Shown: positions 3,554 to 44,812, counted from the first letter of the stretch. The stretch is 64,000 nucleotides of DNA from Fidelibacterota bacterium (GCA_038280095.1 JAYPYG010000001.1:7392-71391), one strand, 5' to 3'. Translations and numbers: made by a program. Notes: generated from the sequence alone by a model not told the origin.

Positions 3554-3654
3554 TTTAGTAGAACCCTAGTGGTAGTACCTTATAGGTTCTTAAGTTCCTT
3601 TTAGGGTACTTAAAGGACTGGAAGTCGCACGCACACGCGTACGGTATTTTTTAT

Positions 3655-3683: not shown

Positions 3684-3692
3684 TAAAAGCTA

Positions 3693-5793: not shown

Positions 5794-5798
5794 TAATC

Positions 5799-6542: not shown

Positions 6543-6547
6543 AAACA

Positions 6548-7498: not shown

Positions 7499-7503
7499 GA
7501 CCA

Positions 7504-10800: not shown

Positions 10801-10817
10801 ATATAAACAAAAAGACA

Positions 10818-12196: not shown

Positions 12197-12197
12197 A

Positions 12198-12740
12198 ATG
12201 AACAAATTCTGCATTATAACACCACCGAGGACTGGTAGCACACTGCTAACAAATATCATTCACGGATTTTTTGACCCCAACGCTCCCTGCTCTTTCGGAC
12301 TAAGAAAAAGGACTATAAAATTTATAAGCGGCAAGGAAAATAATAGTGTAATCCTTAAAAGCCACGATGTAAAATTAATAAACTATCCAATAGCAGAAAA
12401 CTGTTACATAATAAGCTCAATTAGGCCAGAAATCAACAAAGTTGTACCTCCACTAAAAAACAAAAACAGCAACATCTTGATATTGGATTACACAACCGAC
12501 CTCTTGTACGCGTCTCCATACAGCGAGAACAACGGAAAGACCCTTGACGACGTTATTAAAAACGTAGCAAGTAAGATTAAAGAGGAGTTCAGCATACCAA
12601 TTCTAACAAGCCAAATCAATCAGGCAAAAGATAGGGTTCTAAAAATGAACGAAGCGTACGAGAAAATCAAACACAAACCCTTTGCGAAGTTCGACGAATT
12701 TTATCACATACACGGAAATCATAGAAATAGAGGAAGATGA
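12198..12740 (+). CDS. sulfotransferase-like P-loop protein
   Basis: 180 aa. FCIITPPRTGSTLLTNII matches the 5'-PSB loop P-K/R-x-G-S/T-T of PAPS-dependent sulfotransferases. Confidence 0.45.
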   Translation: MNKFCIITPPRTGSTLLTNIIHGFFDPNAPCSFGLRKRTIKFISGKENNSVILKSHDVKLINYPIAENCYIISSIRPEINKVVPPLKNKNSNILILDYTTDLLYASPYSENNGKTLDDVIKNVASKIKEEFSIPILTSQINQAKDRVLKMNEAYEKIKHKPFAKFDEFYHIHGNHRNRGR

Positions 12741-23006: not shown

Positions 23007-23759
23007 ATGACACCATTATTCAAATCCCATTTTAGCATAGGGAAAAGCATTTTAGTCCTAAAATCCAATGGCGACGAAAAATCGTCCGATGGAATTTTTG
23101 ACATAGCAAAAGAAGCTGGGCTCAAAGATGTTGTTCTGGTAGAGGATAACATGACAAGCTTCCTCCAAGCAGCGAAAACCAGCAAAGAGTTTGGCGTAAA
23201 CCTAATCTACGGATTAAGGATTACAGTCTGCGATTCTTATTCAGAAGAAAGCTATGGAAAAGATTGCCACAAAGTAATTATTTTTGCGAAAAATGGCGAG
23301 GGATGCAAGAGGCTAAACAAAATCTACAGCGCCGCATTTTCCCAAGAACACAACTCAATAACCCTTTCGAAACTCAAGGAGCTATGGACAAAAGACGTGA
23401 AGCTTGCTATACCTTTCTATGACTCATTCATATACAATAACCTAATGGAGTTTTCTAGCTGCATCCCTAGGTTTGACTTCACAGAGCCCACGTTCTTTAT
23501 TGAAGATAATGAACTGCCATTCGACCAAATAATCAAAGAGAGTGTCGAAAAATATGTCAAGAAAAACAAGCATCAAGTAGAGAGAGTTAAAACAATCTAT
23601 TATAAAAACCGAAAAGATTTCGCCGCATACCAAACATTTAAGTGTGCAGCAAATCGCTCAGGGTGGGCAGGAAAAACAATCTCACTTCAAAAACCAAACT
23701 TAGAACACTGTGGCAGTAGCGAATTTTGCTTCGAAAGCTATTTAGCGGCAACCAAATAA
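23007..23759 (+). CDS. DNA polymerase III alpha N-terminal PHP-domain protein (separate gene)
   Basis: 250 aa. The N-terminus MTPLFKSHFSIGKSIL aligns with the DnaE F-x-H-L-H-x-H-S-x-Y-S-L start, but the His ligands are mostly replaced. It sits immediately upstream of the exonuclease and polymerase-core genes. Confidence 0.55.
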   Translation: MTPLFKSHFSIGKSILVLKSNGDEKSSDGIFDIAKEAGLKDVVLVEDNMTSFLQAAKTSKEFGVNLIYGLRITVCDSYSEESYGKDCHKVIIFAKNGEGCKRLNKIYSAAFSQEHNSITLSKLKELWTKDVKLAIPFYDSFIYNNLMEFSSCIPRFDFTEPTFFIEDNELPFDQIIKESVEKYVKKNKHQVERVKTIYYKNRKDFAAYQTFKCAANRSGWAGKTISLQKPNLEHCGSSEFCFESYLAATK

Positions 23760-23760
23760 A

Positions 23761-24402
23761 ATGCAAGAAGACTTACTAAGATTTAACTCCAATCAAATGT
23801 TTTGCATGTGGGATTATGAAACATGCCATCTAAACCTTAGGTCAGAAACCAATAGACCTTGGCAGTTAGCCTACATTGTCGCAGACCAAAAGAAAATCCA
23901 TTACAAGAAAGACCACTACCTTTGGTGGGATGATTTGGAAGTGTCTCCAGAGGCAGCACGAATCACAGGATTCAATCGGGCGGTGTACGAAAAGAGAGCT
24001 GAAGACCCGCGCAAAGTTCTCAAAGAATTCCGCAAAGTAATTCACGATAAAAGTGTTCGCCCAGCAGGGCACAACATCCTTGGTTTTGACGTTTACATTG
24101 AGGCGATACACGCAAGGGGGTCAAACATGCCCGTTGACCACTCCTACGTCGACAGACTAATCGACACAAACTGCTTAGAAAAAGCAATTGTGGAAGAAAT
24201 CCCATACAACAAAAACACAAGCTTTATAGGGTGGCAATATTCACTAGCCAACTTCAGAAAAAGAGGTCTAAAAACAAGCCTACAACAATGCGCAAAGAGG
24301 TATGGTATTGAATTTGACGCGAGCAAGCTTCACGACGCGCTTTACGACATAGGAATCAACCTTGAAGTCCTAAAAAAACAACTTTGGAAAATTGAAATAT
24401 GA
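23761..24402 (+). CDS. dnaQ: DEDDh 3'-5' exonuclease (DnaQ/epsilon-like)
   Basis: 213 aa. ExoI FCMWDYETCH, ExoII GHNILGFDVYI, ExoIII LHDALYDIG (H-x4-D). Confidence 0.8.
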   Translation: MQEDLLRFNSNQMFCMWDYETCHLNLRSETNRPWQLAYIVADQKKIHYKKDHYLWWDDLEVSPEAARITGFNRAVYEKRAEDPRKVLKEFRKVIHDKSVRPAGHNILGFDVYIEAIHARGSNMPVDHSYVDRLIDTNCLEKAIVEEIPYNKNTSFIGWQYSLANFRKRGLKTSLQQCAKRYGIEFDASKLHDALYDIGINLEVLKKQLWKIEI

Positions 24403-26966
24403 GCTTCTTTTCAGACATAGAAAAATACGAAGACTTTGCTCCTCCAGGAGTAAGGCTCCCAGAGATTAATATTGAGCAAAAATATTACGACGAATTAGGT
24501 ATCAAAAACACCTCAACAAACTACGAGTTTTTGACCAATCTTTGTCGCAAAGGCTTTCGAGACAGAGCGCTCATAGGCGTGCCCAACAAAAAGGCTTATG
24601 GAGACAGAGTCAAAATGGAGTTAGAAATTTTAGAAGAGCTAGGGTTCACAGACTACATTTTGCTCAACTGGGATATTCTTAATTTTTGCCACGAAAACAA
24701 CATCCCAACTGGCCCAGGCAGAGGCTCCGCCGCAGGCTCATTGGTTCTCTACCTTATTGGGGTAACTCAAGTCGACCCAATTAAATACAGTCTTTTCTTC
24801 GAAAGATTTGTGTCAAAAAGTCGAGCAAAGAAAACAATTAAAGATGGAGTGACATACCTCGATGGGTCGCTGCTTGCTGACGTTGATAACGATATTGCAT
24901 TTGAACACAGACAAACTGTCATTAAATATATTGAGGACAAGTATCCTGGCCGAACTTGCAAAATCCTCACCTTAAACACGTTGAGCGGGAAGCTTTGCGT
25001 TAAAGAGTGTGGTAAGATTGCCGCAGGAATGACGGAGGAAGAAGTGAACCATTTGAGCGATGTTATTCCTAAAAAGTTTGGGAAGGTCGCCCCTTTAAAG
25101 GAGGCTAAAGAGGAAGAAGGTAAGTTTAGGGATTGGGCCGAAGCGAATCCTGAAGCTTACGACATTTGCCGTAAACTGGAAGGCTTGAACAAGAATACTG
25201 GAGTCCATCCAAGCGGAATCGCCATCTCATACGATAAGCTTGAAGACATCTGTCCAATGCAGACGACGGGCGACGGAGATATCGTCAGCGGTTACGACAT
25301 GAATTGGGTCTCAGAATTAACTGTTAAATTTGACATCCTTGGATTAAGAACCTTAAGCGTAATTTACGACGTATGCAGGGAGTTTGACATTGACCCAGTG
25401 AAAGACATTCCAATTGATGAAGATTTCATGTACGAACCACTCAAGGAGCTAAAAGCCCCACAAGGGCTTTTTCAAATTGAGGCAGATACAAACTATAGAG
25501 TGTGTCGCAAAATTAATCCAAGCAACCTAGAAGAGCTTAGCGCGGTTGTGGCTATTGCGAGGCCAGGAGCTATGGACTTCCTTGACGACTTTTCCAAATT
25601 CGTGGAGACAAAAGAGTTTCAAAGCGTCCACAAGCTTTATGACGAAATTCTTGAATACACTGGCGGGATTCCACTTTACCAAGAGCAGTTAATGCAAATG
25701 GCCGTGAAAATCGGATTCACGCTAGATGAAGCGGAGCAACTCAGACGCATTGTAGGCAAGAAAAAGGTCGAACTAATGCCAGCTTGGAAACAAAAAATTG
25801 AAGACAAAATAAAAGAAAACGACTTGCCAACCGACGCAGGAGAGTTTTTATGGAAAGTTGCAGAAGATAGCGCGAATTACTCCTTCAATAAGTCCCATAG
25901 TATTTCTTATGCAATGCTCGCTGCATGGACGACCTACTTAAAGTTTGTTCACCCACAAGAGTTTTACGTCGCACTCTTAAGGATGACGGAAAATGAACAG
26001 CAGCCCCAAGAAGAAATCCAGAAAATAACTCAAGAACTCAGGCATTTTAATTTAGAGCTTCTGCCGCCAGACTTAGCAAAGTCTAATATGCGATTCTCGA
26101 AAGAAGGAAGAAATATTCGTTACGGACTAAACAGCATCAAGGGCGTAAGCGAAAAATCACTAGAGGCTTTGCAAAGTTTTCGAGAGTCAGATTCCCCAAG
26201 TAAATATGACGTGTTTATAGACGCAAAGCAAGCGGGGATAAATATTGGTATTTTGTCTGCGCTAATTCAAGCAGGAGCGATGTCTTCATACAAAACAGCT
26301 CGCTCCAGAATGGTTTTAGAAGCTCAAGCGTTCAATAAATTAACAGAGAGAGAGAAGCGTCAATTCACACTATTGGGCGAAGAATGCGACTTTAACCTCC
26401 TGAAAAATATTATTGATGTAAAAAACGAAGAAAGAATCGGTGACGATAATAAAAAAATCATGACCGAGAAGCGATTCCAAACATTTAAAAAGCACTTTAA
26501 AAAATATCGCGAAATTTATGACAAAAATAAAGAGCACGAAACATTTGCAAACTGGTATTTTGAGAACCAACTTTTGGGATACTCTTACACAAGCAGATTG
26601 AAAGACATATTCTCAACTCGCAATAAGCCCTATAAGGATTCACAGTTTTTCTGGGAAGAAATGAGTAATGATGACGGAGATGTTTTTATAGGAACCGTGA
26701 AAGACGTTTTCAAAAAGAAGTCTCAAAAAAGCGGAGCGCCTTATATCAAGATTACGATTGCAGATGAAGTGGGCACAATTCAAGGCATGATGGGAGACTG
26801 GGGCAAGCAAATGGCTCTCTCAAAATATCTCGACAAAGGAGGGGTCATGCCAGAGAAAGGTAGCATTGTGACCATTTCTGGCCGCAAAAACGATGACATT
26901 ATATTTATGGACAATATGTCTGTTTTGGACCAAAAGATTTATATGAAACTTGCAGACTTAAAGTAA
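24399..26966 (+). CDS. dnaE: DNA polymerase III alpha catalytic core (lacks most of the PHP domain)
   Basis: 855 aa. GPGRGSAAGSLVLYLIGVTQVDPIKYSLFFERF, ARPGAMDF, YQEQLMQMA, FNKSHSISYAMLA, and a C-terminal OB-like region. Confidence 0.9.
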   Translation: MSFFSDIEKYEDFAPPGVRLPEINIEQKYYDELGIKNTSTNYEFLTNLCRKGFRDRALIGVPNKKAYGDRVKMELEILEELGFTDYILLNWDILNFCHENNIPTGPGRGSAAGSLVLYLIGVTQVDPIKYSLFFERFVSKSRAKKTIKDGVTYLDGSLLADVDNDIAFEHRQTVIKYIEDKYPGRTCKILTLNTLSGKLCVKECGKIAAGMTEEEVNHLSDVIPKKFGKVAPLKEAKEEEGKFRDWAEANPEAYDICRKLEGLNKNTGVHPSGIAISYDKLEDICPMQTTGDGDIVSGYDMNWVSELTVKFDILGLRTLSVIYDVCREFDIDPVKDIPIDEDFMYEPLKELKAPQGLFQIEADTNYRVCRKINPSNLEELSAVVAIARPGAMDFLDDFSKFVETKEFQSVHKLYDEILEYTGGIPLYQEQLMQMAVKIGFTLDEAEQLRRIVGKKKVELMPAWKQKIEDKIKENDLPTDAGEFLWKVAEDSANYSFNKSHSISYAMLAAWTTYLKFVHPQEFYVALLRMTENEQQPQEEIQKITQELRHFNLELLPPDLAKSNMRFSKEGRNIRYGLNSIKGVSEKSLEALQSFRESDSPSKYDVFIDAKQAGINIGILSALIQAGAMSSYKTARSRMVLEAQAFNKLTEREKRQFTLLGEECDFNLLKNIIDVKNEERIGDDNKKIMTEKRFQTFKKHFKKYREIYDKNKEHETFANWYFENQLLGYSYTSRLKDIFSTRNKPYKDSQFFWEEMSNDDGDVFIGTVKDVFKKKSQKSGAPYIKITIADEVGTIQGMMGDWGKQMALSKYLDKGGVMPEKGSIVTISGRKNDDIIFMDNMSVLDQKIYMKLADLK

Positions 26967-26971
26967 CATGC

Positions 26972-27000
26972 TTTACAAGCGGCAGTTCTTTTGATATAAT
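26972..27000 (+). promoter_or_regulatory. sigma70-type promoter (TTTACA-17-TATAAT) upstream of the Clp ATPase gene
   Basis: -35 at 26972-26977 and -10 at 26995-27000. ATG 27015 is 14 nt after the -10. Confidence 0.55.
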
Positions 27001-27014
27001 AATCAAAATCAAAT

Positions 27015-29480
27015 ATGAAGACTCAGCCGAATTTTACCCCACGAGCACAAGAATCAATACGAGAAGCGAGGTTAATAGCCTTAGAAAACAAGGAGTCCAA
27101 AATAACAATGGACCACTTGACTCTCGGCGTTGTTTCCATAGACAGTGTAAGTATCATAGAATTTTTTGATACCGCTGAAGTTGACCACGTAAAAGCGATT
27201 CAGTACATCACAAATAAAATAAAGCAAAACGGCGGCGATACACCCAAGCAACTCGAACCCGCAGAAGATTTTAAGCGCGTATTGCGAGCATCACACAACG
27301 CATCCATAAAAATGGAACATCCTTATGTTGGGGTGGAGCATATTCTCTTAGCTATATTTGAAGAAGGAGCAAATTCCTTGGTTCACTTTTTGGCGTCAGA
27401 AGGAGTCTCGATGAGAGACGCAAAAAGAATCGTTCAGTCTCGATTTTTAGTTGAAGACGCGGAAGAGGAGAGGTCAATTACAAAAACCCAAGAAAAGAAA
27501 GAGTCCCAAACCCAAGACCCATCCCAAAAGAGGAAGCAGAAAAAAGAAAAGTGTGCCACTTTTGAAAAATTCACCACCAACTTAAATAAGTTGGCGGAAG
27601 ACGGAAAGTTTGATAGTGTTATTGGTAGGAGTTCTGAAATAAAAGACGCGGCAGAGGTATTGTGCCGCCGAAATAAAAACAATCCAATTCTACTCGGAGA
27701 AGCGGGTGTCGGAAAAACCGCAATAGTTGAGGGGTTGGCACAAACAATCATTTTCAGCCAATGCACCAGCTTTCTAGAAAGCAAGACGATTTATGCAGTA
27801 GACCTTGCTGGAATGATTGCTGGAACAAAATACCGAGGTCAATTCGAAGAACGCTTAAAAAAAGTCATTGACGGGGCAGTCAATGACGATGATGCAATCC
27901 TCTTCATAGATGAGATTCATACTTTAATCGGGGCTGGTAGTGCGGAAGGCACTATGGACGCAGCAAACATACTCAAGCCACTTTTGGCGAGGGGCAAAGT
28001 TCGCTGTATAGGAGCCACAACAAGAAAAGAGTACAGGAAAACGATTTTAAAAGACGGAGCCTTAGACAGAAGATTCCAACCAATTATAGTAGAAGAACCG
28101 TCTGAAGAAGACTGCGTGAAAATTCTTAATGGAGTGAAAGCTAATTATGAAAAATTTCACAAAGTCGTTTATCCGCAAGCCGTAGTCAACGAGGCAGTAA
28201 AACTCTCCAGCAGATACATTACAGACAGATACCTTCCAGATAAAGCCATTGACTTGCTTGACCAAGCAGGCTCAAAAGCAAAAATTAGGGCATTTAGAAG
28301 ACCGCAAGAAGCCCTTGACATCGAAAAAGAGATAGAGCGACTTTATCTGTCCGAACAATGCTCAAGCGAACCTCACATTGTAATACGTAAAAAAGAGGAG
28401 CTTGTGAAAAAATACACAGCCATCATGGAGGCTTGGGCAAATGAATCCACATCACGAGCAACAGAGGTTCAAAAATCCGACATTCATAAAGTCTTAACTC
28501 AAAAAACAGGAATTCCCGTAAAAGACATTTCCCAGAGCGAGAAAGAGCGAATCCTTAACCTTGAGCCAAATTTAAACGAAGTAATCGTTGGGCAAGAAAA
28601 GGCAGTCGAGAAATTATGCAAAGCAATCCTGAGAAACAAGGCGGGACTAAACGATAGAAACAAACCCATAGGCTCATTTCTCTTTCTTGGCTCTAGCGGC
28701 GTAGGTAAAACATACCTCTCCCAACAACTCGCCCACTATATTTTCGGTGGCGAAAAAAATGTCATCAAGCTTGACATGTCAGAATATGGCGAAAAAGCCT
28801 CGACCGCGAAAATTACTGGAGCAGTTCCAGGTTATGTTGGGTACGAAGAGGGTAGCAGTATTATCGAGAGAATTAGAAAACAGCCTCACAGCGTCGTACT
28901 GTTCGACGAAATAGAGAAGGCTCACCCAGATGTACTGAATCTTTTACTCCAAATACTAGAAGATGGGCAAATAACAGACAGCTCAGGAAGAACCGCGAGC
29001 TTCAAAAGCTGCGTAATCATCATGACGAGCAACGTCGGTTCTCACCTCACAAAAAAAACCAACACAATGGGCTTTGGAGCATCAAACGACGACAACAACG
29101 AATCCGCTGTTCTTGAAGAAGCGGGAAAAGTTTTCAAGCCAGAGCTGTTGTCAAGAATCGAGTCAAAAGTCGTATTCAACAATTTAAAAGATGAGCAAAT
29201 CAGAAAAATCACAGAGCTTGAATGCGCCAAACTTGAGCGACGAGCAGAAGAAAAAGTGTCTTCAATCCACTTTGATGAAACACTGTATCAACACATATGC
29301 GACAAGCTTTCAAAAGAAAATAATGAATCAGGCGCACGACCTATTCGGACAATCATCAAAGAAGAAGTTGAGCAGCCCCTTGCGGAATCCCTCATCAACT
29401 GCGATTCACCATTTCAAGTCAAGGCAACAATTGCTTTTGATGGAGAGGTGCGCGTTACAATATACGAGGAAAGCGAATGA
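27015..29480 (+). CDS. ClpA/ClpC-type AAA+ unfoldase (Clp_N repeats + two AAA modules)
   Basis: 821 aa. Two Clp_N repeats (ITMDHLTLGVV and VGVEHILLAIFEE). D1 Walker A LLGEAGVGKTAIVEGLA, D2 FLFLGSSGVGKTYLSQQLA. A short coiled-coil linker. The loop TNTMGFGASND lies at the position of the ClpP-docking I/V-G-F/L tripeptide. Confidence 0.9.
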   Translation: MKTQPNFTPRAQESIREARLIALENKESKITMDHLTLGVVSIDSVSIIEFFDTAEVDHVKAIQYITNKIKQNGGDTPKQLEPAEDFKRVLRASHNASIKMEHPYVGVEHILLAIFEEGANSLVHFLASEGVSMRDAKRIVQSRFLVEDAEEERSITKTQEKKESQTQDPSQKRKQKKEKCATFEKFTTNLNKLAEDGKFDSVIGRSSEIKDAAEVLCRRNKNNPILLGEAGVGKTAIVEGLAQTIIFSQCTSFLESKTIYAVDLAGMIAGTKYRGQFEERLKKVIDGAVNDDDAILFIDEIHTLIGAGSAEGTMDAANILKPLLARGKVRCIGATTRKEYRKTILKDGALDRRFQPIIVEEPSEEDCVKILNGVKANYEKFHKVVYPQAVVNEAVKLSSRYITDRYLPDKAIDLLDQAGSKAKIRAFRRPQEALDIEKEIERLYLSEQCSSEPHIVIRKKEELVKKYTAIMEAWANESTSRATEVQKSDIHKVLTQKTGIPVKDISQSEKERILNLEPNLNEVIVGQEKAVEKLCKAILRNKAGLNDRNKPIGSFLFLGSSGVGKTYLSQQLAHYIFGGEKNVIKLDMSEYGEKASTAKITGAVPGYVGYEEGSSIIERIRKQPHSVVLFDEIEKAHPDVLNLLLQILEDGQITDSSGRTASFKSCVIIMTSNVGSHLTKKTNTMGFGASNDDNNESAVLEEAGKVFKPELLSRIESKVVFNNLKDEQIRKITELECAKLERRAEEKVSSIHFDETLYQHICDKLSKENNESGARPIRTIIKEEVEQPLAESLINCDSPFQVKATIAFDGEVRVTIYEESE

Positions 29481-29891: not shown

Positions 29892-29920
29892 TTGACAAAT
29901 AAACTCACTTTTGCTATCAT
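29892..29920 (+). promoter_or_regulatory. sigma70-type promoter (TTGACA-17-TATCAT), leaderless geometry
   Basis: -35 at 29892-29897 and -10 at 29915-29920. ATG 29927 is 6 nt after the -10. Confidence 0.6.
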
Positions 29921-29926
29921 AAGAAA

Positions 29927-30316
29927 ATGAGAAAATTACTGTTAATTCTCGCTCTCATTGTCGGTGCATTCTCCACCCAATCATACCACATTCCCATTGA
30001 GGACCACCAATGCACTGGACTCATAAGAGTCATGCAGGTAGAAAAAACCATAGAAGACAACATTCCTCGTTATTATGTAAGAACAAATTCAGGCTGGATG
30101 GAAATCCGCTCAGCCTCAAAAAGAATAGAAGAAGACATTTACCAAACTCTTTTAAAAAACAAAAACAGAGTATTTGGCGCACTGTTTGTGGCCCCAATGT
30201 ACTACGGATATGCGCTAGATAACGCCCACAGTATTTTTGATATAACTCAACAACCATACGAAGAAATCGACGAAAGACTCAACCCCCAAAACCCAAACAT
30301 AGACAAAGAACTATAA
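29927..30316 (+). CDS. secreted hypothetical protein (129 aa)
   Basis: N-terminal signal-peptide-like MRKLLLILALIVGAFSTQS. Confidence 0.5.
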   Translation: MRKLLLILALIVGAFSTQSYHIPIEDHQCTGLIRVMQVEKTIEDNIPRYYVRTNSGWMEIRSASKRIEEDIYQTLLKNKNRVFGALFVAPMYYGYALDNAHSIFDITQQPYEEIDERLNPQNPNIDKEL

Positions 30317-30752: not shown

Positions 30753-32306
30753 ATGTCTCTTTGGTACGAATGCGGAAACGGCTCAGTAAGAGTCACATCA
30801 GGATGGGCCTACAAAAAGCATCCTCTAGATTTTTACATATGCTGCACAGGTCCTTCTTTGAGAGAAGTCTCAAACTCGGACTTTAAGCATCCAGGCATTT
30901 TTACGATAGGAATCAACACATCCTACCCATACATAAAACCAGACCTATGGATAGGCATGGACAAACCAGAGTGTTACGATTCAAAATTATGGTGGGAGCC
31001 ATTTAGGAAAATTTGCAGAGGCCCTTATATAAATACGCGCTTCCACGGCTATGAGCTAAAATCTATGCCAAACACCTTTTTTGCAGACGTGAAAAAGCCA
31101 GAAAAAGATGTGGAAATTTTTGAAAGAAGGGGTCATGATATTGATTTTATTTGGAGAAAAAACACTTTAGTCGTTGCTCTTCACACTGCGATATGGATGG
31201 GTGCGCAGAGAATTCATCTAGTTGGTTGTGACCTCGGCGGACCAAGGGATTATTACGATAATAGAGTTTTGACAGAAGAGCAAAAAGCACACAACAAAAA
31301 ACTGTACGACTCTCAAGTTATCTGGCTAAAGTGGTTTTATCAAGCAGCAAAAAAACGCAGGATAGAAGTAATATCCTGCTCGGAGCAGGCTCCAATAAAC
31401 GATATAGTTACTTACAAGAATATTCATGAGAGCTTAATTGAGTCTCGAAGAAGAGTTCCTCAAATAAACTCTGAAATAGTTCACGCTATTGATGCCAATA
31501 AGAAGCCAAAAAAAGAACAGCCTAAAGCGGAACCGAAAAAGCTGGCAAGCAAAAAAGCAGAAGTGGAAGTTTTAAACCCGAATGATAAGCTTAGAGTATT
31601 CGTTGGAGCATCAGAACAAGAGGGTGTTCCTACGAAAGTCTTAGAATCCTCTATAAAAAGGCGCGCAACAATTCCTGTTGGAGTTTACTCCCTTGGCGAG
31701 GTTATGGAAAAGAAAGGAATTAAAGTTCCCACGCCAAAAGACCCACAAAACAGACCTAAGACAAATTTTTCATTTCACCGCTGGTGCATACCTGAAATTT
31801 GCGACTATAAAGGAAAGGCAGTTTACTGTGATTCAGACCAAATCGTCTTAGAGGATGTAGCAGAACTACTTAAATTTTTCGACAAATATCCAGACAAAAG
31901 CGTATTAGTAATGTCAGATAAAAAGGATTATATCGAAACATCAGTGATGCTAGTAGACTGCGAAAAAGTAAATTGGGACATACGTAAGATTGTCCAAAAT
32001 TTAGATGACGGAAGCCTTAACTACAAATCCTTAATGTTTAAAATGGGGCTAGAGAGCAAAGGCGACTACATCATCGGCGCAGGTCCAGAATGGAATAGCC
32101 TTGACGAATTTGAAGAGGGCAAAACCAAACTCCTTCACTATACAAATAGAGGAACTCAACCATACAAAGGAGGCAAGAGTCCACTAACGCACCTTTGGAT
32201 GAATGAATTGTGCGCAGCCCTCAACATAGGATACGTATCCAAAGACGAAGTTGCGGGTGCTGTTAAAAATAGGTGGATTTCTACGAACTGCCTTCAAGCG
32301 AAATGA
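30753..32306 (+). CDS. two-domain glycosyltransferase: CstII/DUF115 (MAF)-like domain + GT8-like domain
   Basis: 517 aa. The N-domain FYICCTGPSLREVSNSDFKHPGIFTIGINTSY and NTLVVALHTAIWMGAQRIHLVGCDLGG parallel the CstII/DUF115 motifs (x-G-N-G-P-S-L ... and ... G-x-x-x-I-x-L-x-G-x-D). The C-domain has FSFHRWCIPEI...AVYCDSDQIVLEDVAELLKF, a GT8 DXD region. Confidence 0.5.
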   Translation: MSLWYECGNGSVRVTSGWAYKKHPLDFYICCTGPSLREVSNSDFKHPGIFTIGINTSYPYIKPDLWIGMDKPECYDSKLWWEPFRKICRGPYINTRFHGYELKSMPNTFFADVKKPEKDVEIFERRGHDIDFIWRKNTLVVALHTAIWMGAQRIHLVGCDLGGPRDYYDNRVLTEEQKAHNKKLYDSQVIWLKWFYQAAKKRRIEVISCSEQAPINDIVTYKNIHESLIESRRRVPQINSEIVHAIDANKKPKKEQPKAEPKKLASKKAEVEVLNPNDKLRVFVGASEQEGVPTKVLESSIKRRATIPVGVYSLGEVMEKKGIKVPTPKDPQNRPKTNFSFHRWCIPEICDYKGKAVYCDSDQIVLEDVAELLKFFDKYPDKSVLVMSDKKDYIETSVMLVDCEKVNWDIRKIVQNLDDGSLNYKSLMFKMGLESKGDYIIGAGPEWNSLDEFEEGKTKLLHYTNRGTQPYKGGKSPLTHLWMNELCAALNIGYVSKDEVAGAVKNRWISTNCLQAK

Positions 32307-33139
32307 AAATAGGGATTTTTGAATCAACACTTTCCTCCAAGGAGCACGTACGCCCAATCCACTCCCTTGCGGGAGGTATGCGAAAACTAAACCTAGAATT
32401 CTTTTTTAGCAAAGAATATAAGCCGTGTGACATAGCTGTTTCTTGGGGGGTTTACAAAAAAATAAAAAAAGAGACGAAGGTAAGGAATGAAATAAAGTTA
32501 AGGCAATTATCGAGAGGCAGAAGAACCCTAGTAGTGGAAAGGGGCTACCTCAAAAGAGATTCCTATTTTTCCATAGGATTTGATTCTCAAAATGGCTGGG
32601 CAGACTTTAACAACAAAACTTGCCCCATTGACAGATGGAGCAAACTTGGAATAAAGTTAAAACCAAAAATAAGCAAAGGCGAGAACGTCTTGTTTTGCGG
32701 ACAGGTTCCTTGGGACACGGCAGTTCAAGATATAGATTATATACAGTGGTGTAAGGATATAGTAAAATCTATAAGAGAAGTTACCGACAGGAACATAATT
32801 TTTCGCCCACACCCTCTTGGGCCAGACATGTCCAAACACATCAAAGAAACAAGGCGAGTTAAAATGTCAACGAACAAAAACATTTTAGAGGATTTTAAAG
32901 AGACTTGGTGTGCGGTAGCATACAACTCAAACGCTTTAGTCGAAGCAGCAATAGAAGGAATCCCTGTTTTCGCTTTTAATAATGGAGCGATGACATGGGA
33001 GATTGCAAACAAAAACATTACAAACATAGAGAACCCAAAACTTCCGCCAAGACAACAATGGGCCGCAAACCTAGCATACACTCAATGGACCCTTGATGAG
33101 ATGAAGGAAGGACTACCATTGAAACACTTACTATCATGA
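32303..33139 (+). CDS. putative capsule-type (KpsS/KpsC-like) glycosyltransferase
   Basis: 278 aa from ATG 32303 (ATGA overlap). ENVLFCGQVPWDTAVQ...NIIFRPHP resembles the Capsule_synth pattern (L-Q-V-x-x-D-S ... K-x-H-P). Weak evidence. Confidence 0.3.
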   Translation: MKIGIFESTLSSKEHVRPIHSLAGGMRKLNLEFFFSKEYKPCDIAVSWGVYKKIKKETKVRNEIKLRQLSRGRRTLVVERGYLKRDSYFSIGFDSQNGWADFNNKTCPIDRWSKLGIKLKPKISKGENVLFCGQVPWDTAVQDIDYIQWCKDIVKSIREVTDRNIIFRPHPLGPDMSKHIKETRRVKMSTNKNILEDFKETWCAVAYNSNALVEAAIEGIPVFAFNNGAMTWEIANKNITNIENPKLPPRQQWAANLAYTQWTLDEMKEGLPLKHLLS

Positions 33140-33921
33140 AAATATTCTCAACATTCAACGACAAAATATACCATTCTTCAGGAAGGGATTTAATCTTTTC
33201 GCTAAAAGGCGCGGGGATGATAGATTCATTTATCGGGTACTATGAATTTTCCGACAAAGAGAATGTTAAAACATTACTTAAACTCGCCCCAAACTCAAGA
33301 AATCTAAACTCCTCTATTTGTGGCGAAATAATAACAAATATTTTTAATAAAAATAAACATATCATCCCACAAAAACACGGAGGCACAGCACCTCAGGAAA
33401 TTTGCGACGACTTCTGGAATAGAAGATGGTTTAGCTGGTTTAAAAAAATAGCAATGGCGTACGACGCCCTATGGAGGGAAGATGCAGATGCTGGAGAAAT
33501 TTATCTTTTCCTAGACTCAGATATTCGAGTAATAAAGCCATTCAATCAGTTACAATTAAAAAAACTCATGAATGGCGCAGATATAGGCATACTAAAAGGC
33601 AATCGAGAGGCAGTTGAGGCAGGAGTAATTGCAGTAGACGCGAGAATGCTTATGGCCAGCAATTTTTATGAAAAGCTCCTTAGGTTATTCAGCTCAGGAG
33701 CGTTTCAAAATATGAAGAGGTGGGATGACGGATATGTTTTTGCAAAACTCATGAAAGGTGAGGGGCTTTGCAAATTTCACGATTTCGCAAAAGAAAAGAA
33801 ACAAAAAAAATTCACAAACTCAAATGGCCACGAAACAAACAACCAAATCTTGCCGTTCTCAGAGTTGGGCGAGTTTTTTGAGCACGACAAAGGAAAGCAC
33901 GTCAGAGAGTCAATAATATGA
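33136..33921 (+). CDS. hypothetical protein, possible DXD nucleotide-sugar transferase
   Basis: 261 aa. GEIYLFLDSDIRVIKPF is a DXD-like motif. Confidence 0.3.
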   Translation: MKIFSTFNDKIYHSSGRDLIFSLKGAGMIDSFIGYYEFSDKENVKTLLKLAPNSRNLNSSICGEIITNIFNKNKHIIPQKHGGTAPQEICDDFWNRRWFSWFKKIAMAYDALWREDADAGEIYLFLDSDIRVIKPFNQLQLKKLMNGADIGILKGNREAVEAGVIAVDARMLMASNFYEKLLRLFSSGAFQNMKRWDDGYVFAKLMKGEGLCKFHDFAKEKKQKKFTNSNGHETNNQILPFSELGEFFEHDKGKHVRESII

Positions 33922-34664
33922 TGAGCAACACAAAAAAGACAAAGATAGCGCTACTTCAATGCGGGTTTATCAGAGACATGAGTCACATGTCTAGAATGAG
34001 GAGTTTCATCCATAACAATAGCGAATTCGAAATAGATGTTTACTTGCAGACATATAATATAATAGGGGTTGATGAAAAATTCGTAAGGAACAGAGGGGGA
34101 TACTTGAGTTCCGACAGGACAGACATAGAAGAAATAAACAGAATCTGCCCCATAAAAAACTTTCAAATCTTAGACCCGATTGCGACAGAAAAGAAGGCGA
34201 AAGCAAGAAATCCAACCCTCATTAACGCTATTTGCCAATTCCAAAATGTATTTGACGCGATGCAAATGATAGACACCAAGCAATACGATGGAGTTATTAG
34301 GTCAAGGCCCGATTACTTCATTAAACATATGCGTCTCAAAAATTATGATGTAGAAAAAATATTAACATCAAATTTACTTTTAGCTAAACTTAAATCTGGA
34401 AAAATTCTTAAAAAAGCGGAGGGTCACTTAAAGCAAAGATGTCTTAATTTCCTTCTCTACGACGGGTTCGCACTTGGAGGTGTAAGAAATATGGAAAAAT
34501 ACTGCGACTTTATTAATCAAGAGGTTTTTTCTCTCAAAAGGAATGGTATTTTTGCAGAGTTAGAATTAACAAATTATATAAGCAATAACCTAAAGCTAGA
34601 CGTTTGCAACATCAACGACAAAGACCTCCTAGAGCCCTGCATATGGAGAAAGCTACAAGGTTAA
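33918..34664 (+). CDS. hypothetical protein (248 aa), paralog-family member
   Basis: Shares an N-terminal strand (KIALLQCGFIRD) and QYDGVIRSRPDY with 9967-10800. Confidence 0.4.
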   Translation: MMSNTKKTKIALLQCGFIRDMSHMSRMRSFIHNNSEFEIDVYLQTYNIIGVDEKFVRNRGGYLSSDRTDIEEINRICPIKNFQILDPIATEKKAKARNPTLINAICQFQNVFDAMQMIDTKQYDGVIRSRPDYFIKHMRLKNYDVEKILTSNLLLAKLKSGKILKKAEGHLKQRCLNFLLYDGFALGGVRNMEKYCDFINQEVFSLKRNGIFAELELTNYISNNLKLDVCNINDKDLLEPCIWRKLQG

Positions 34665-34791
34665 AACAGACCATTAATCAAAAAAAAATTAGAGCGTTTG
34701 AAGCCTCAAAAATGCGGGGGCTAGGCACACCAGAAGACTTAAATCACTACTTAGTAAATCACAAAAGCATCAACAAATAAATCATAACAAC

Positions 34792-35334
34792 ATGATAAAC
34801 GTAGATAGAAAATTCATCTTACTCTTGCCACAAAAAACTGGCTCAACGTCAATCACACACCTAATGAAAGAGCAGGGCGTCAAAGACGAAATGGGTTCAA
34901 AACATCACACGTTAGGAGAATGTATTAAAAACTGGAAAGATGAATGGGGAGATATTGACGAATATCTTATCGCTTCAACCTTGCGAAATTGCTACGACAA
35001 AGTCGCATCGACATGGGAATCAAAAAAAGGCAAAATAATAGCGAAAAGTTTTACCAACTACTGCCTTAAAACCCACAAGCCATCCCTAGCTTCAAAAATC
35101 GTTTTTTTTGGCCAATACTCACCCCAAGCATACATTAATTTCGAAACACTGCAAGACGACTTTCGAGCATTTTGCAACATGGTTGACATTAAAAAAAGTG
35201 ACATTCCCAAAAAGAATATGGCAAAAAACCGAGAGCACTACTCCAAATATTATTCAAATGAATCAAAGAAATGTGTTGAAAAAATGTACAAAGATGATAT
35301 ACTCATTTTCAACTTTAAATTCGAAAACCAATGA
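34792..35334 (+). CDS. sulfotransferase-like protein
   Basis: 180 aa. FILLLPQKTGSTSITHLM matches the P-x-K-T-G-S-T PAPS-binding loop. Confidence 0.45.
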   Translation: MINVDRKFILLLPQKTGSTSITHLMKEQGVKDEMGSKHHTLGECIKNWKDEWGDIDEYLIASTLRNCYDKVASTWESKKGKIIAKSFTNYCLKTHKPSLASKIVFFGQYSPQAYINFETLQDDFRAFCNMVDIKKSDIPKKNMAKNREHYSKYYSNESKKCVEKMYKDDILIFNFKFENQ

Positions 35335-35882
35335 GATTACCAAAACACCTAGGCGGCCACTTAAATAAAACGCACATAGACAATGGCGCACTACATTATC
35401 TTAAAGACAAGCTTTTAATCAAAAGCATGTTGGACGTGGGCTGTGGGCCAGGAGGAATGGTTTACAGAGCAAGAGAAATAGGGATAGATTCCTTTGGAAT
35501 AGATGGGGATTTTACCACCATACCGAAGGACTCATTTTTTTCTGTTCACGATTATCAAGACGGCCCCTCTGATTTAAGGGAAGCAACATTTGACTTGGTT
35601 TGGAGTTGCGAATTTGTAGAGCACGTTTTCGAAGAGTATATCCCCAATTATGTGGCTGATTTTCTCAGAGGGAAGTATTTGCTAATGACACATAGCGAGT
35701 CACCTAACGGCTATCATCACGTCAACATCAAAAACGAAGGGTATTGGATTGATAAAATGAAGTCTTTTGGTTTCGAGCTTGACGAACAAAGAACTAAAGA
35801 GGTCAGAGCCGCCTCAACAATGAAAAAAAAGTTTGTGCAAAAAACAGGGTTGCTTTTTAAAAACGCAAATAGGGACACATGA
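35331..35882 (+). CDS. class I SAM-dependent methyltransferase
   Basis: 183 aa. Motif I MLDVGCGPGGMV, followed by an acidic strand (FGIDGD) and DLVWSCEFVEHV. Confidence 0.75.
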   Translation: MRLPKHLGGHLNKTHIDNGALHYLKDKLLIKSMLDVGCGPGGMVYRAREIGIDSFGIDGDFTTIPKDSFFSVHDYQDGPSDLREATFDLVWSCEFVEHVFEEYIPNYVADFLRGKYLLMTHSESPNGYHHVNIKNEGYWIDKMKSFGFELDEQRTKEVRAASTMKKKFVQKTGLLFKNANRDT

Positions 35883-36322
35883 ACAGAATCGCCGAACTCA
35901 CCGCTATCCAAGCGCACCAAAATCGACAGTCTTTTATTCTTGTGGTTTGCGAAAAGCCGAGCGAAATCTGCGAAAGAGTATCTGACCTTTTAACCAGATT
36001 AGGCTTACCAAGACAAAAAGGCAAGACAAACATTTATGGCGGCGAAGGAATAAGAAACCTATACATTGAATTCGTCACAAAAGAAAATCTTGAACAAAGT
36101 ATTCGTGGAGTTCGCCCTGCTAGAGTTCTACTCGAAGGCTCTTCCCAAGACTATACTAAAGACTTGATAGACCTTACTATACCTGCTTTAATTGCAGGGG
36201 AGCAGAGTGAATCAGACCTTCGAATTTTAATTAACCAACTCAAACTCCCGCATGACGCAAGCTGGATTAATGACACAGAGCGACCACACAATAAACTATT
36301 TTTTTCAGACATAAGGGCATAA
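35879..36322 (+). CDS. hypothetical protein (147 aa)
   Basis: ORF with an ATGA overlap to the methyltransferase gene. Confidence 0.4.
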   Translation: MNRIAELTAIQAHQNRQSFILVVCEKPSEICERVSDLLTRLGLPRQKGKTNIYGGEGIRNLYIEFVTKENLEQSIRGVRPARVLLEGSSQDYTKDLIDLTIPALIAGEQSESDLRILINQLKLPHDASWINDTERPHNKLFFSDIRA

Positions 36323-36860: not shown

Positions 36861-36953
36861 ATGATACTAGATGAAAAGAAAATCAACGGAAGAAAAAATA
36901 TTCTGCTAAGATGCGCCCACTCTGGCGAAAAGTTCTTTGACCAAATAACATGA
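36861..36953 (+). CDS. short ORF (30 aa) translationally coupled to the HNH gene
   Basis: Encodes MILDEKKINGRKNILLRCAHSGEKFFDQIT. Its stop overlaps the HNH start (ATGA at 36950-36953). It is too short for the supplied ORF track. Confidence 0.25.
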   Translation: MILDEKKINGRKNILLRCAHSGEKFFDQIT

Positions 36954-37483
36954 AAGAAGTCTGGAAAGACATTCCTAAATCTAACAGAGACCATCAGGTG
37001 TCTAACCTTGGAAGGGTAAGGTCACTCAAGTTCTCAAAGGAAAGAGTCATGAAGCAATGCGTGCGAAGAAGCTATCCTTCAATTACGCTCTGGCTCAATA
37101 GAAAGCGCAAGCATTTTTTTGTGCACAGGCTTGTGGCAGAAGCATTTATTAAAAACCCCGACAACAAACCCCAAGTAAATCACAAAGACTCGAACAAGAC
37201 AAACAACCATGTGTCAAACCTAGAATGGGTGACGCCTTCAGAAAACATACTTCATCATTACAATTCAAGCAAAGGCAAAAATCGCATTATAGGGATTACG
37301 GGAGAAGGCAACCACGCGTTTAAAGGACATATAGAAGCATACAAAGATGGAGTAAAAATAGAAACCTTTTGCGGGGAAAGGGATATGAAAAAAAAAGGCT
37401 TCGATTCGTCTACAGTTTACGCTTGTGTCAACGGAAAACATAAAACACACAAAGGCTGCACGTTCAAACGAGTCTCAAAATAA
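36950..37483 (+). CDS. HNH homing endonuclease (NUMOD4 + HNH_3)
   Basis: 177 aa. WKDIP...HQVSNLGRVRS is NUMOD4-like. VHRLVAEAFIKNPDNKPQVNHKDSNKTNNHVSNLEWVTPSEN is the HNH_3 signature. Confidence 0.85.
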   Translation: MKEVWKDIPKSNRDHQVSNLGRVRSLKFSKERVMKQCVRRSYPSITLWLNRKRKHFFVHRLVAEAFIKNPDNKPQVNHKDSNKTNNHVSNLEWVTPSENILHHYNSSKGKNRIIGITGEGNHAFKGHIEAYKDGVKIETFCGERDMKKKGFDSSTVYACVNGKHKTHKGCTFKRVSK

Positions 37484-43906: not shown

Positions 43907-44806
43907 ATGATAGAAATTAAAAACAACAAAGGTCAAACCCTCAATCACAAATCTTTCACTTTTAGCGGCGGAGAGGTTCAAGTTAAATTAGACCCAGAAG
44001 GAAAAGCTTGGTTCTTTAAAGGGGTCGATGGGTACATAATTACTGCTCGCATTCGCTCCAGCGAAGACTTAATGGAGCTAGTTATGGCAACAGATGCTTT
44101 GCGCAGGGTAGCCAGAGCATTCTCCAGCAAGGCTGAAATTATATTAAAACTCGGCTATACTCCATACGCTCGCCAAGACAGAGTTTGTGATGCTGGTGAA
44201 GCTTTTGGAATGAAGGCTTTTGCGAATATCATCAACTCCCTTGGTTTTGAAGATGTGCTTGTCTTAGACCCACATTCCGACGTTGTTTGCGCAACAATCG
44301 ACAGTTGCTACTCTATTGACATGTACGACATTGTTCGCTCTTGGATGGGGTCTATGGCTCGAACAGGTATCCCCGAACTAAACTTACACCTCGATGATTG
44401 GGACTTTATTTCTCCCGACGCTGGAGCAAACAAAAAGACAGCGAAGCTTGCAGGAGCATTTAAGAAAACAAGTTTCATTCGGGCCGATAAACTTAGAGAT
44501 TGCACAAACGGAGAAATCCTTGAAACAGTTGTTTACGGCCAACCAAAGAAGAAAGTTATGATTTTTGACGACATTTGTGACGGAGGGATGACTTTCATCA
44601 AACTCGCTGAAGCCCTCCAAGCAAAAGGAGTTGAAGACATCAACCTTTATGTAACTCACGGAATATTTTCCAAAGGGCTACTCCCTCTTACTGAAGCAGG
44701 CATTAAGAGAATCTTCACAACCAACACCTTTAGAACAAAGGAAGAGTATTCCGAAGAGTTTGGCAATCTTGTTGGAGAACAATTATTTGTATTAGACATT
44801 ATCTAA
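43907..44806 (+). CDS. ribose-phosphate pyrophosphokinase homolog (Prs-like; candidate ADPR pyrophosphokinase Adps)
   Basis: 299 aa. PRTase-type ribose-phosphate loop VMIFDDICDGGMTF with an overall Prs layout. It lies directly upstream of a NAMPT homolog. Confidence 0.75.
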   Translation: MIEIKNNKGQTLNHKSFTFSGGEVQVKLDPEGKAWFFKGVDGYIITARIRSSEDLMELVMATDALRRVARAFSSKAEIILKLGYTPYARQDRVCDAGEAFGMKAFANIINSLGFEDVLVLDPHSDVVCATIDSCYSIDMYDIVRSWMGSMARTGIPELNLHLDDWDFISPDAGANKKTAKLAGAFKKTSFIRADKLRDCTNGEILETVVYGQPKKKVMIFDDICDGGMTFIKLAEALQAKGVEDINLYVTHGIFSKGLLPLTEAGIKRIFTTNTFRTKEEYSEEFGNLVGEQLFVLDII

Positions 44807-44812
44807 AAGAAA

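Follow-up and report, generated by a model that had tools for sequence, protein, structure and literature searches.

A stretch of 64,000 nucleotides deposited under a Fidelibacterota bacterium (GCA_038280095.1, JAYPYG010000001.1:7392-71391; hereafter the window) was analysed, and to all appearance it belongs to the large genome of an uncultured marine phage. The subject here is the interval from 30753 to 35882, the second of two glycan islands in the window (island II), which carries six co-directional open reading frames (ORFs), g1 to g6. From sequence comparison and predicted structures, we consider it rather probable that island II is a translationally coupled phage cassette assembling and tailoring an acidic glycan, which would probably contain Kdo, a sugar acid of bacteria (3-deoxy-D-manno-octulosonate), and be sulfated and methylated. 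A first-pass annotation, made by a model from this sequence alone, had seen here a glycan island marked by signatures of ulosonic-acid-type transferases, together with a sulfotransferase and a methyltransferase; in its essentials this description is borne out, the observation being largely right and the interpretation right at its core. Its reading had been tied to support for the DUF115, GT8 and Capsule_synth families and was not refuted: DUF115, GT8 and KpsC/KpsS-like affinities each find support, which comes from family profiles and predicted structure.

The g2 protein as a candidate Kdo transferase

The g2 protein is a candidate retaining beta-Kdo transferase of the KpsC/WbbB type. When a profile of 41 g2-family sequences was compared with the PDB, six sequences were retrieved at E up to 10, all of them beta-Kdo transferases: KpsC (6MGD at 1.4e-3, also 6MGC) and WbbB (5FA0 and variants at 0.022 and weaker). 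The single g2 sequence gave chance matches only, the curated Capsule_synth model was not matched, and a Pfam domain was precomputed on 0/65 g2 homologs. In the profile alignments, Q134-V-P-W-D138 of g2 is in register with the QxxxD motif of KpsC and with QVEDD of WbbB, whose D232 is the residue mutated in the D232N entries, and R168-P-H170-P171 aligns with the HP motif of both enzymes. Within the family, Q134 and H170 are present in 41/41 sequences, P171 in 40/41 and D138 in 34/41. In retaining beta-Kdo transferases, the Asp of QxxxD is the covalent nucleophile and the His of HP is the acid catalyst (PMC10148158, PMC9587256).

The AlphaFold model of g2 (predicted local distance difference test, pLDDT, 95.1; predicted TM-score, pTM, 0.91) was compared with the PDB by Foldseek, and ranks 1-8 were all taken by KpsC (8FUX, 6MGD, 8FUW, 6MGC, 6MGB) and WbbB (5FA1, 8CSC), with E = 1e-8 to 2e-6. 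According to the model and these matches, the fold is a modified GT-B-like one with two reduced Rossmann-like domains. In BFVD, which holds predicted structures of viral proteins, two proteins of Tetraselmis virus 1 (TM 0.80, the top match, and 0.78) and one of a Caulobacter phage matched best; the two from Tetraselmis virus 1 bear the name 'Capsule polysaccharide biosynthesis protein'. The KpsS/KpsC-like candidate of the first-pass annotation is therefore confirmed as such, KpsC and WbbB being both the only PDB profile matches and the top fold matches. Judged by profile and predicted structure, the g2 family forms a large branch of the retaining Kdo-transferase fold that is rich in viral members and lacks annotation.

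The other proteins of island II

The g1 protein consists of two modules joined by a linker (Table 1), as proposed earlier for a fusion of a CstII/DUF115-like with a GT8-like part. The division is seen among its 70 homologs, of which 8 are full length, 17 share residues 1-260 only, with a different C-terminal part, and 45 share residues 277-517 only. It is also seen in the AlphaFold model, built from homologs, which has a mean pLDDT of 92.7 (approximately 95 in the N-terminal domain) and a single low-confidence stretch, residues 256-269, with pLDDT <50. In direct comparison with Pfam, g1 matched MptE-like/DUF115 (PF01973) at E = 1.5e-3 and GT8 at E = 0.013, both below the cut-off. Neither single-sequence nor close-homolog profiles of g1 found anything meaningful among PDB sequences, and a profile of the N-terminal domain found no PDB match.

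At the level of the N-domain family, PF01973 was matched below threshold by 19/20 members, with a best E of 8e-7, and PHROG 4603 ('alpha-2,3-sialyltransferase') was matched weakly by g1 itself (E = 3e-4). As a reference, a 487-amino-acid protein with a precomputed PF01973 match was taken from an analogous cassette on the viral contig L016; it was matched by the g1 N-domain hidden Markov model (HMM) at E = 6e-12 and aligned with the family by hhalign over 198 columns (95.6% probability, E = 1e-8). Comparison by hhalign with CstII (the sequence of PDB 1RO7) gave 65% probability, E = 6e-5, over 192 columns, with GPSL, N55 and G158-x-D160 of g1 aligned with AGNGPSL, RCN and SGID of CstII; the catalytic His188 of CstII had no clear partner in this alignment. 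In Maf proteins, the topology of the PF01973 domain is a modified form of GT-A, akin to that of GT42 CstII, and both nonulosonic acids and Kdo are transferred by these enzymes (bioRxiv 10.1101/2020.06.03.131540). The N-terminal domain is thus, by these comparisons, a candidate module for the transfer of ulosonic acids activated by cytidine monophosphate (CMP).

For the C-terminal domain, PF01501 is precomputed on 35/70 g1 homologs, all of them among the 45 that share residues 277-517, including homologs at 31-40% identity. The top Foldseek matches of the g1 model in the PDB were GT8/GT-A retaining enzymes (3TZT, glycogenin, XXYLT1, GlyE, LARGE1, LgtC and WbbM; E = 6e-8 to 4e-6). The hallmark of GT8 is a DxD motif plus a distal His for a divalent metal, the latter within an H-x-x-G-x-x-K-P-W-like motif. 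In g1, D360-S-D362 and H462 (local sequence HYTNRGTQPYK) are conserved at >=90% in 71 sequences. Both halves of the proposed fusion are therefore upheld, the DUF115-like half by family profiles and the GT8 half by Foldseek and by PF01501 on homologs. By analogy with WbbM, LARGE1 or the Kdo-ribose polymerase KrkA, the two-module make-up of g1 suggests a glycan with a repeating unit.

The third protein, g3, is best read as a divergent GT8-like transferase. Neither its sequence nor its family profile matched Pfam or the PDB. Invariant residues were found at D127-x-D129, W196-D-D198 and H250-x-K-G-x-H255, which agrees with its earlier description as a DXD protein. By hhalign, g3 is related (85% probability, E = 7e-6) to a domain found instead of GT8 after the DUF115-like module in P0009 and other proteins; the only PDB matches of this replacing domain are the GT8 enzymes LgtC, LARGE1 and WbbM, and PF01501 is weakly matched by 5/12 of its members. 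The GT8-like reading of g3 follows from this link, and the fusion in other proteins ties g3 functionally to the DUF115-like module. An ORF in island I (5799-6542, + strand) has a weak DUF6492 match and may, on its sequence, be another divergent GT-A enzyme. It was rejected as a relative of g3, as only the DxD stretch (VDSDCVF) is shared with the g3 family and the hhalign probability was 17%.

For g4, the only match was PHROG 13607, of unknown function. Its relatives number 17 among 1.8 billion representative proteins, they are missing from all 80 g2-anchored loci described below, and the family profile matched neither Pfam nor the PDB. The first-pass annotation had regarded g4 as a paralog of ORF 9967 in island I. 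This is not supported, as BLASTP (E = 2.7), the g4-family HMM (E = 0.12) and hhalign (0.7% probability) were all non-significant. A short motif (Q, approximately 17 residues, YD-x-V-[IL]-[RK]-[ST]-R-x-D) is all that g4 and ORF 9967-10800 have in common, and it is probably what prompted the claim.

Two tailoring enzymes complete the island. The g5 protein matched PHROG 3347 at E = 3e-9 and Pfam Sulfotransfer_2 at E = 2e-3 (18.8 bits, below the cut-off of 22); PF03567 was the sulfotransferase family used as reference. Sulfotransferases that use 3'-phosphoadenosine-5'-phosphosulfate (PAPS) are defined by a 5'-phosphosulfate-binding loop and a 3'-phosphate-binding motif, and in g5 the corresponding PQKTGSTS (residues 13-20) and RNCYDKVAS (approximately 65-73) line up with paralogs that pass the Pfam cut-off. 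The PHROG match and the two motifs together bear out the PAPS-loop protein noticed earlier. The g6 protein scored 27.6 bits against Pfam Methyltransf_11, above the cut-off of 21.2, and has motif I (LDVGCGPGG), as expected for the class I S-adenosylmethionine (SAM) methyltransferase that had been proposed. NCBIfam, searched with the six island proteins, gave weak methyltransferase matches only.

The paralogs of g5 lie in island I. BLASTP with g5 found the products of 11564-12196 (E = 1e-7) and 7504-8097 (E = 2e-3), so the claim that the islands share paralogs stands for the sulfotransferases and falls for g4 and ORF 9967. The further claim of one distributed pathway gains indirect support, since an island I-type sulfotransferase is found inside an island II-type cassette in contig L004 and in Pelagibacter phage Mosig; the L004 sulfotransferase, located between the g2 and g3 homologs, is 28.5% identical to the 11564-12196 product. 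Island I also encodes a nucleotidylyltransferase fusion (8425-9537). This was considered as a CMP-Kdo or CMP-sialate synthetase and rejected, its best NCBIfam matches being of the RmlA, GlmU-N and GalU types, not KdsB or NeuA. Judged by these matches, its product would supply a nucleoside diphosphate (NDP)-sugar, not a CMP-ulosonic acid.

Conserved neighbourhoods in other viruses

In IMG/VR, relatives of g2 were located on at least 595 viral contigs, and neighbours were counted in the best 80 loci, which form 39 clusters at 60% identity. A g3 relative is found near g2 in 61/80 loci (46 within 100 nucleotides) and 25/39 clusters, and a relative of the g1 GT8 domain in 47/80 loci and 21/39 clusters. 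More than one g2 paralog is present in 14/39 clusters, and the family often occurs in tandem arrays of 3-6 paralogs (for example L096, L079 and L025). Apart from IMG/VR contigs, the family is carried by Caulobacter jumbo phages, a phage of SAR11 and an algal giant virus.

The arrangement of these loci resembles that of island II in several cases. Contigs L004-L006 (from TARA) carry g1, g2, an unknown gene, an island I-type sulfotransferase and g3. The 443-kb contig L016 carries a DUF115-like gene, a sulfotransferase, g2, a Macro-domain gene, a second sulfotransferase and two methyltransferases. Homologs of g6 (39-41% identity) are found within approximately 1-3 kb of g2 and g3 relatives in two contigs: in L012, where g2 and g3 relatives are adjacent, the methyltransferase is approximately 1.5 kb from g2, and L014 has five g2 paralogs, a g3 relative and two g6-type methyltransferases, one of them adjoining a g2 paralog. 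Two cultured carriers are known. Pelagibacter phage Mosig, which infects SAR11, has a cluster of a g3-like gene, a GT8 gene, a g2-like gene, a sulfotransferase, a second g2-like gene, a further GT8-like gene and two annotated methyltransferases; the cluster adjoins ribonucleotide reductase genes and is mostly annotated 'hypothetical'. In Caulobacter Bertelyvirus phages, two g2-like genes directly follow the tail fibre genes.

Some other features of these contigs were noted. In L016, the Macro-domain gene (10891-11481) lies between the g2 homolog and a sulfotransferase, and the contig also encodes IF3, DnaJ, Cpn10 and a sigma factor. In L012, a gene with a weak match to adenosine phosphosulfate (APS) kinase (2187-2624) lies approximately 7 kb from the g2-g3-methyltransferase group; this hints that some phages may boost PAPS supply as well. 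Genes of the PSCyt2/PSD1 and DUF1501 families, typical of Planctomycetota-type bacteria, were found in L004 (637-3830), and also in L005 and L006, at a distance of 2-5 kb from g1-g2; in other respects these contigs resemble phage. The genes may point to the host, or form an auxiliary pair of an unusual kind.

The identity of the sugar acid

The first-pass annotation had left the choice between a nonulosonic and an octulosonic acid. The octulosonic part of this proposal is the one that gained support, from genes for Kdo synthesis next to relatives of the island. In L017, the closest IMG/VR relative (its g2 is 44% identical), g1, g2 and g3 are directly followed by a gene for a 259-amino-acid KdsA (11795-12574), which holds the position of g4. 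This protein matched Pfam DAHP_synth_1 at 1.3e-67, and the first 40 of its PDB matches are Kdo-8-phosphate synthases throughout, with E down to 8e-85, the DAHP synthases following far behind. In L013, L087 and L088, KdsA and KdsB lie at a distance of 5-8 kb from a group of three g2 paralogs, a GT8 gene and g3. Starting from KdsA instead, 22/80 viral loci carry g2 relatives, often three, which corresponds to 4/19 KdsA clusters after dereplication.

Neither the window ORFs scanned nor the precomputed Pfam annotation of the remainder of a 72-kb copy of this contig, whose longest copy has 100.6 kb, showed a gene of an ulosonic-acid pathway (KdsA/B/C/D or NeuB/NeuA type); the neuB/pseI-like genes for which the first-pass annotation had advised a search are thus likewise not found in the 72 kb scanned. 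For this reason the donor would have to be CMP-Kdo of the host, which we regard as likely and which is plausible only for a Gram-negative host. The linkage to KdsA and KdsB in relatives, taken with the lack of an ulosonic-acid pathway gene in these 72 kb, favours Kdo over nonulosonic acids.

It is nevertheless conceivable, and in our estimate unlikely, that the transferred acid is a nonulosonic one of the sialic, pseudaminic or legionaminic type, with its donor made by the host or by other genes of the genome. CMP-nonulosonic acids are the main donors of the DUF115/Maf and CstII families, the weak match of g1 to PHROG 4603 points the same way, and the HP motif occurs in CMP-sialic-acid enzymes too. 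L014 contains three weak matches to GT29, a family of eukaryote-type sialyltransferases, among its g2 paralogs (2639-10909). Against this, all solved relatives of g2 are Kdo transferases, the pathway genes beside relatives of the island are KdsA and KdsB, and Maf enzymes also accept CMP-Kdo. Families of the nonulosonic-acid pathway did not turn up in the Pfam listings, with no search aimed at NeuB/PseI in the relatives. Kdo therefore remains our preferred sugar acid. It is known that Kdo-containing, sulfated polysaccharides are made by marine bacteria (PMC11766843).

Island layout and genomic setting

The limits given for the island in the first-pass annotation are exact, with the ATG of g1 at 30753 and the last base of the g6 stop codon at 35882. 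The same six genes are called on the identical public contig, instead of the seven that had been counted; a seventh is reached only by including the ORF at 35879-36322, past the island end. A 58-amino-acid TTG ORF overlapping the end of g4 was considered as an extra gene and found unconvincing. Four-nucleotide ATGA overlaps, said earlier to form most junctions, are present at 4/5 internal junctions (32303, 33136, 33918 and 35331) and again at the junction to the downstream ORF (35879). Across the window, 15/64 co-directional junctions are of this kind, so the island is more tightly coupled than its background. The downstream ORF, which has no Pfam or NCBIfam match, may be translated together with the island. 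In the gap between g4 and g5, no strong site resembling a promoter or a terminator was found, and none of the island II proteins showed a transmembrane segment.

Table 1. Positions of island II, its parts and associated features in the window
Feature	Position	Strand	Description
g1 (517 aa)	30753-32306	+	DUF115/Maf/CstII-like domain fused to GT8 domain
g1 N-terminal domain (aa 1-260)	30753-31532	+	DUF115/Maf/CstII-like; candidate CMP-ulosonic-acid transferase module
g1 interdomain linker (aa 256-276)	31518-31580	+	Lys/Glu/Pro-rich; length differs among homologs
g1 C-terminal domain (aa 277-517)	31581-32306	+	GT8-type retaining GT-A glycosyltransferase
g2 (278 aa)	32303-33139	+	Start is the ATG overlapping the g1 stop; KpsC/KpsS/WbbB-like retaining beta-Kdo transferase candidate
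g3 (261 aa)	33136-33921	+	Divergent GT8-like DxD glycosyltransferase candidate; usual g2 neighbour
g4 (248 aa)	33918-34664	+	No functional match; not a conserved cassette member
Intergenic gap (127 nt)	34665-34791		Sole non-overlapping junction in the island
g5 (180 aa)	34792-35334	+	PAPS-dependent sulfotransferase by profile and motifs
g6 (183 aa)	35331-35882	+	Class I SAM-dependent methyltransferase by Pfam and motif I
Downstream ORF (147 aa)	35879-36322	+	ATGA junction at 35879 with island end
Sigma-70-like promoter match	29892-29920	+	11/12 consensus positions, extended TG; consensus match only
Island I sulfotransferase, g5 paralog	7504-8097	+	Pfam Sulfotransfer_2 E = 1e-11; BLASTP against g5 and 11564
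Island I nucleotidylyltransferase fusion	8425-9537	+	Sugar-1-phosphate nucleotidylyltransferase with HAD phosphatase; Pfam NTP_transferase and HAD families
Island I sulfotransferase, g5 paralog	11564-12196	+	Pfam Sulfotransfer_2 E = 5e-14

The promoter match in Table 1 is a possible start of a transcription unit running through the island. It is the best sigma-70-like match of the region and precedes a 129-amino-acid ORF (29892-30316, + strand) with a signal-peptide-like N-terminus, two genes upstream of g1.

The tight coupling also bears on the question of whether the genes belong together at all. They could be unrelated morons or decayed remnants, each with a real family resemblance and without a joint pathway, as several assignments are below threshold, g4 is without function and the g2 family at times occurs without the other members. 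However, every ORF is intact and translationally coupled, catalytic motifs are kept across homologs at 25-55% identity, and the AlphaFold models have a pLDDT of 93-95. In addition, the g2-g3 pair, together with GT8, sulfotransferase and methyltransferase neighbours, recurs in distant contigs and in cultured phages. Coupling, motif conservation and recurrence thus make a collection of unrelated or decayed genes very unlikely, and a working cassette is the reading followed here.

The phage genes of the window include a RecA-like recombinase, a DnaB helicase, a primase, a ribonucleotide reductase and a split DnaE-type polymerase, further a ClpB-like ATPase, ThyA, NAMPT, PhoH, RNA ligases and a polynucleotide kinase-phosphatase (PNKP). 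The replicative polymerase is divided into PHP, RNase_T-type exonuclease and DnaE-like genes, followed by a gene for an 821-amino-acid ClpB-like double AAA+ ATPase (23007-29480, + strand). A short way downstream of the island there is an HNH/NUMOD4 homing-endonuclease gene (36950-37483, + strand), and a gene similar to phosphoribosyl pyrophosphate (PRPP) synthetase stands beside the NAMPT gene, the two forming a nicotinamide adenine dinucleotide (NAD) salvage pair (43907-46468, + strand). A 313-amino-acid ORF without Pfam match is located 26 kb downstream of the island (61701-62642, + strand). Homologs of this ORF (33% identical; for example L001 3894-4943 and L002 8856-9905) are found, in divergent orientation, directly upstream of the g1 homolog in three related contigs, and from this arrangement it may be a displaced cassette member.

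No match to the island was found by megablast against 50,697 phage records, and tblastn of the window DnaE-like polymerase against phage records gave no close cultured relative. A scan of cellular genomes with a single protein found two weak relatives only, and hence no host clue.

The position of the island among genes of replication and nucleotide metabolism, with a gene of the thymidylate-synthase family 4.8 kb downstream, raises the question of whether the cassette could hypermodify the phage DNA with a glycan, in the way of the clusters that put hexoses, heptose, uronic acids or Kdo on 5-hydroxymethylpyrimidines. Phage glycosyltransferases are known to attach Kdo-like and multi-sugar glycans to cytosine, and such DNA-glycan clusters sit near replication genes and thymidylate-synthase homologs (bioRxiv 10.1101/2023.12.21.572611). 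All enzymes of the island appear to be soluble. The thymidylate-synthase homolog itself, however, is a canonical ThyA, with 242 bits against TIGR03284 (cut-off 108) and the Asn that specifies deoxyuridine monophosphate in PFNIASY, and on its score and this Asn it was rejected as a hydroxymethylase. A deoxythymidine monophosphate kinase is also encoded in the window, and no TET/5mYOX or C5-methyltransferase was found among the ORFs scanned. The enzyme described there as adding Kdo to DNA has a fold like that of T4 beta-glucosyltransferase and unlike that of KpsC, and sulfotransferases are mentioned 0 times in that paper (bioRxiv 10.1101/2023.12.21.572611). Modification of the phage DNA is therefore improbable as the function of the cassette, and a glycan on another acceptor is preferred.

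Proposed mechanism and acceptor

The analysis shows the gene organisation, the assignments of folds and motifs, the recurring neighbourhoods and, in relatives, the link to genes of Kdo synthesis. The donors, the order of the steps and the product that we infer are as follows. All six island products appear soluble and would therefore act in the cytoplasm of the infected cell, where CMP-Kdo, PAPS and SAM would be supplied by the host. Up to four glycosyltransferase active sites could be involved, namely the DUF115/Maf/CstII-like and GT8 domains of g1, together with g2 and g3. In the first of the proposed steps, g2 would take Kdo from CMP-beta-Kdo onto Asp138 of QVPWD, with His170 of the HP motif assisting the loss of CMP, and would then hand it to a sugar acceptor with retained configuration, in a double displacement as in KpsC and WbbB. 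The GT8-type domains could add hexoses from uridine diphosphate (UDP)-sugars by means of their DxD/His metal sites, and the DUF115-like module could either add a further ulosonic acid or initiate the chain. The g5 sulfotransferase and the g6 methyltransferase would cap or decorate the product. Island I may feed and extend the same product through NDP-sugar supply, a GT2 enzyme and its two additional sulfotransferases.

Several observations weigh against this reading. For g2, there is no Pfam (E up to 1), NCBIfam or PHROG match, and the TM-scores to KpsC and WbbB are moderate (TMq 0.46-0.60). The Asp of QxxxD is missing in 7/41 g2 relatives, and the subfamily lacking it includes the best-matching copy in L013, a contig with KdsA and KdsB. 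The general-base Glu of Kdo transferases was not mappable on g2, where E79 (33/41 Glu, 6/41 Asp) and the invariant E266 are the positions in question and where alignments to solved enzymes cover residues 121-223 only. The HP motif is common to CMP-sialic-acid enzymes as well (PMC10148158), so that CMP-Kdo is a presumed donor. For g1, the N-terminal domain scored 18.8-20.4 bits against PF01973 (cut-off 34.6), with a match to the last 22 profile positions only, and the C-terminal domain scored 15.5 bits against PF01501 (cut-off 24.3); Foldseek of the two-domain model gave GT8 matches only among the 50 matches listed, and none for the fold of the N-terminal domain. Linkage to KdsA is seen in only 2/39 g2 clusters, a Kdo pathway gene was not found in the window itself, and the availability of CMP-Kdo in the host is an assumption. 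Finally, g4 has no functional assignment, and no exporter, lipid-carrier priming enzyme or acceptor was identified.

As for the acceptor, we tentatively place first a precursor of a glycolipid or polysaccharide of the host envelope, at the inner membrane face. There are precedents for this in every family of the cassette, and no phage exporter is needed if the product is exported by host machinery. Virion proteins are a more doubtful choice, for which one can cite the Maf precedent, the tail fibre genes beside the g2-like genes of Caulobacter phages, and an algal giant virus in which the fold occurs too. It would be unlikely for the acceptor to be something else, and still less likely for it to be the phage DNA discussed above.

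A bolder version can also be put forward, which we think rather unlikely. The g2 family could be an unrecognised, virus-rich clade of retaining Kdo transferases, amounting to a new family at the level of CAZy, which together with g3 as its near-obligate GT8-like partner, the sulfotransferases and the methyltransferases builds a sulfated or methylated Kdo-rich glycan on the virion or its DNA, and not on the host envelope. If the glycan sits there, abundant marine viruses would decorate their virions or genomes in a novel way.

Both Kdo and sulfated sugars have a central place in the surfaces of bacteria and in their recognition by phages, and phage genes that add them have hardly been described. 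SAR11 is the most abundant bacterium of the ocean. If the proposed function is true, many marine phages, including one that infects SAR11, would remodel the surface of a cell or give themselves a coat of acidic sulfated glycan, and superinfection, grazing, the stickiness of particles and the flow of carbon and sulfur could be affected. A large 'hypothetical' viral protein family would gain a function, and the set of retaining Kdo transferases, which are of mechanistic and drug-target interest, would grow. With Pelagibacter phage Mosig and the Caulobacter Bertelyvirus phages as cultured carriers of relatives, the idea is directly testable.

Comparison with known systems

The closest known counterparts of g2 are KpsC/KpsS (GT107), WbbB (GT99) and KrkA (GT140), with which it shares the unusual reduced GT-B-like fold and the QxxxD and HP motifs. 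The likeness to KrkA extends to the way in which kinship is recognised, as in both cases sequence similarity to other families is negligible and the relationship is mainly structural. In contrast to KpsC, with modules of approximately 320 amino acids, g2 is a single module of 278 amino acids. It also differs from the Kps systems in having no Capsule_synth match, in being encoded by a virus away from kps export genes and often in 3-6 tandem paralogs, and in that its activity is predicted from sequence and model.

With Maf (PF01973/DUF115) and CstII (GT42), the N-terminal domain of g1, as far as the profile alignments show, appears to have in common the GPS(L) nucleotide-binding loop, the G-x-D-x-G strand-loop motif and approximately 190-200 aligned residues. 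These families use CMP-activated ulosonic acids, including Kdo. Unlike Maf, g1 is below the Pfam cut-off, has a GT8 domain fused instead of the Maf flanking domains, and is not in a flagellin context. In its overall design, g1 is similar to the GT8-containing two-module synthases WbbM and LARGE1 and to KrkA, in which a Kdo transferase and a second transferase jointly produce a polymer of disaccharide repeats, as two different glycosyltransferase modules are likewise combined in one chain. The partner in g1, however, is DUF115-like, a pairing not found among the matched solved structures, and a polymerase activity would be an inference from this design only.

Among phages, the cluster of Mosig (MT647606.1, Mosig_00183-00191) is similar in that it contains a g3-like gene, GT8, two g2-like genes, a sulfotransferase, a further GT8-like gene and two methyltransferases. 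A DUF115-like module is absent from it, the identities are 27-34%, and both its g2-like and its g3-like genes carry the label 'hypothetical'; a literature search brought up no functional study of the cluster. Marine phages, such as cyanophages with 'cell wall/LPS' (lipopolysaccharide) auxiliary genes, also carry Kdo biosynthesis genes, including KdsA/KdsB, and many glycosyltransferases (PMC12801897). Several g2-bearing contigs resemble them in carrying KdsA and KdsB, whereas the window carries candidate Kdo transferases and tailoring enzymes, not the biosynthesis genes. None of the families in island II is new, but a combination in which g2 is joined by a DUF115-GT8 fusion, a partner of the GT8-like type, sulfotransferases and methyltransferases was found nowhere described.

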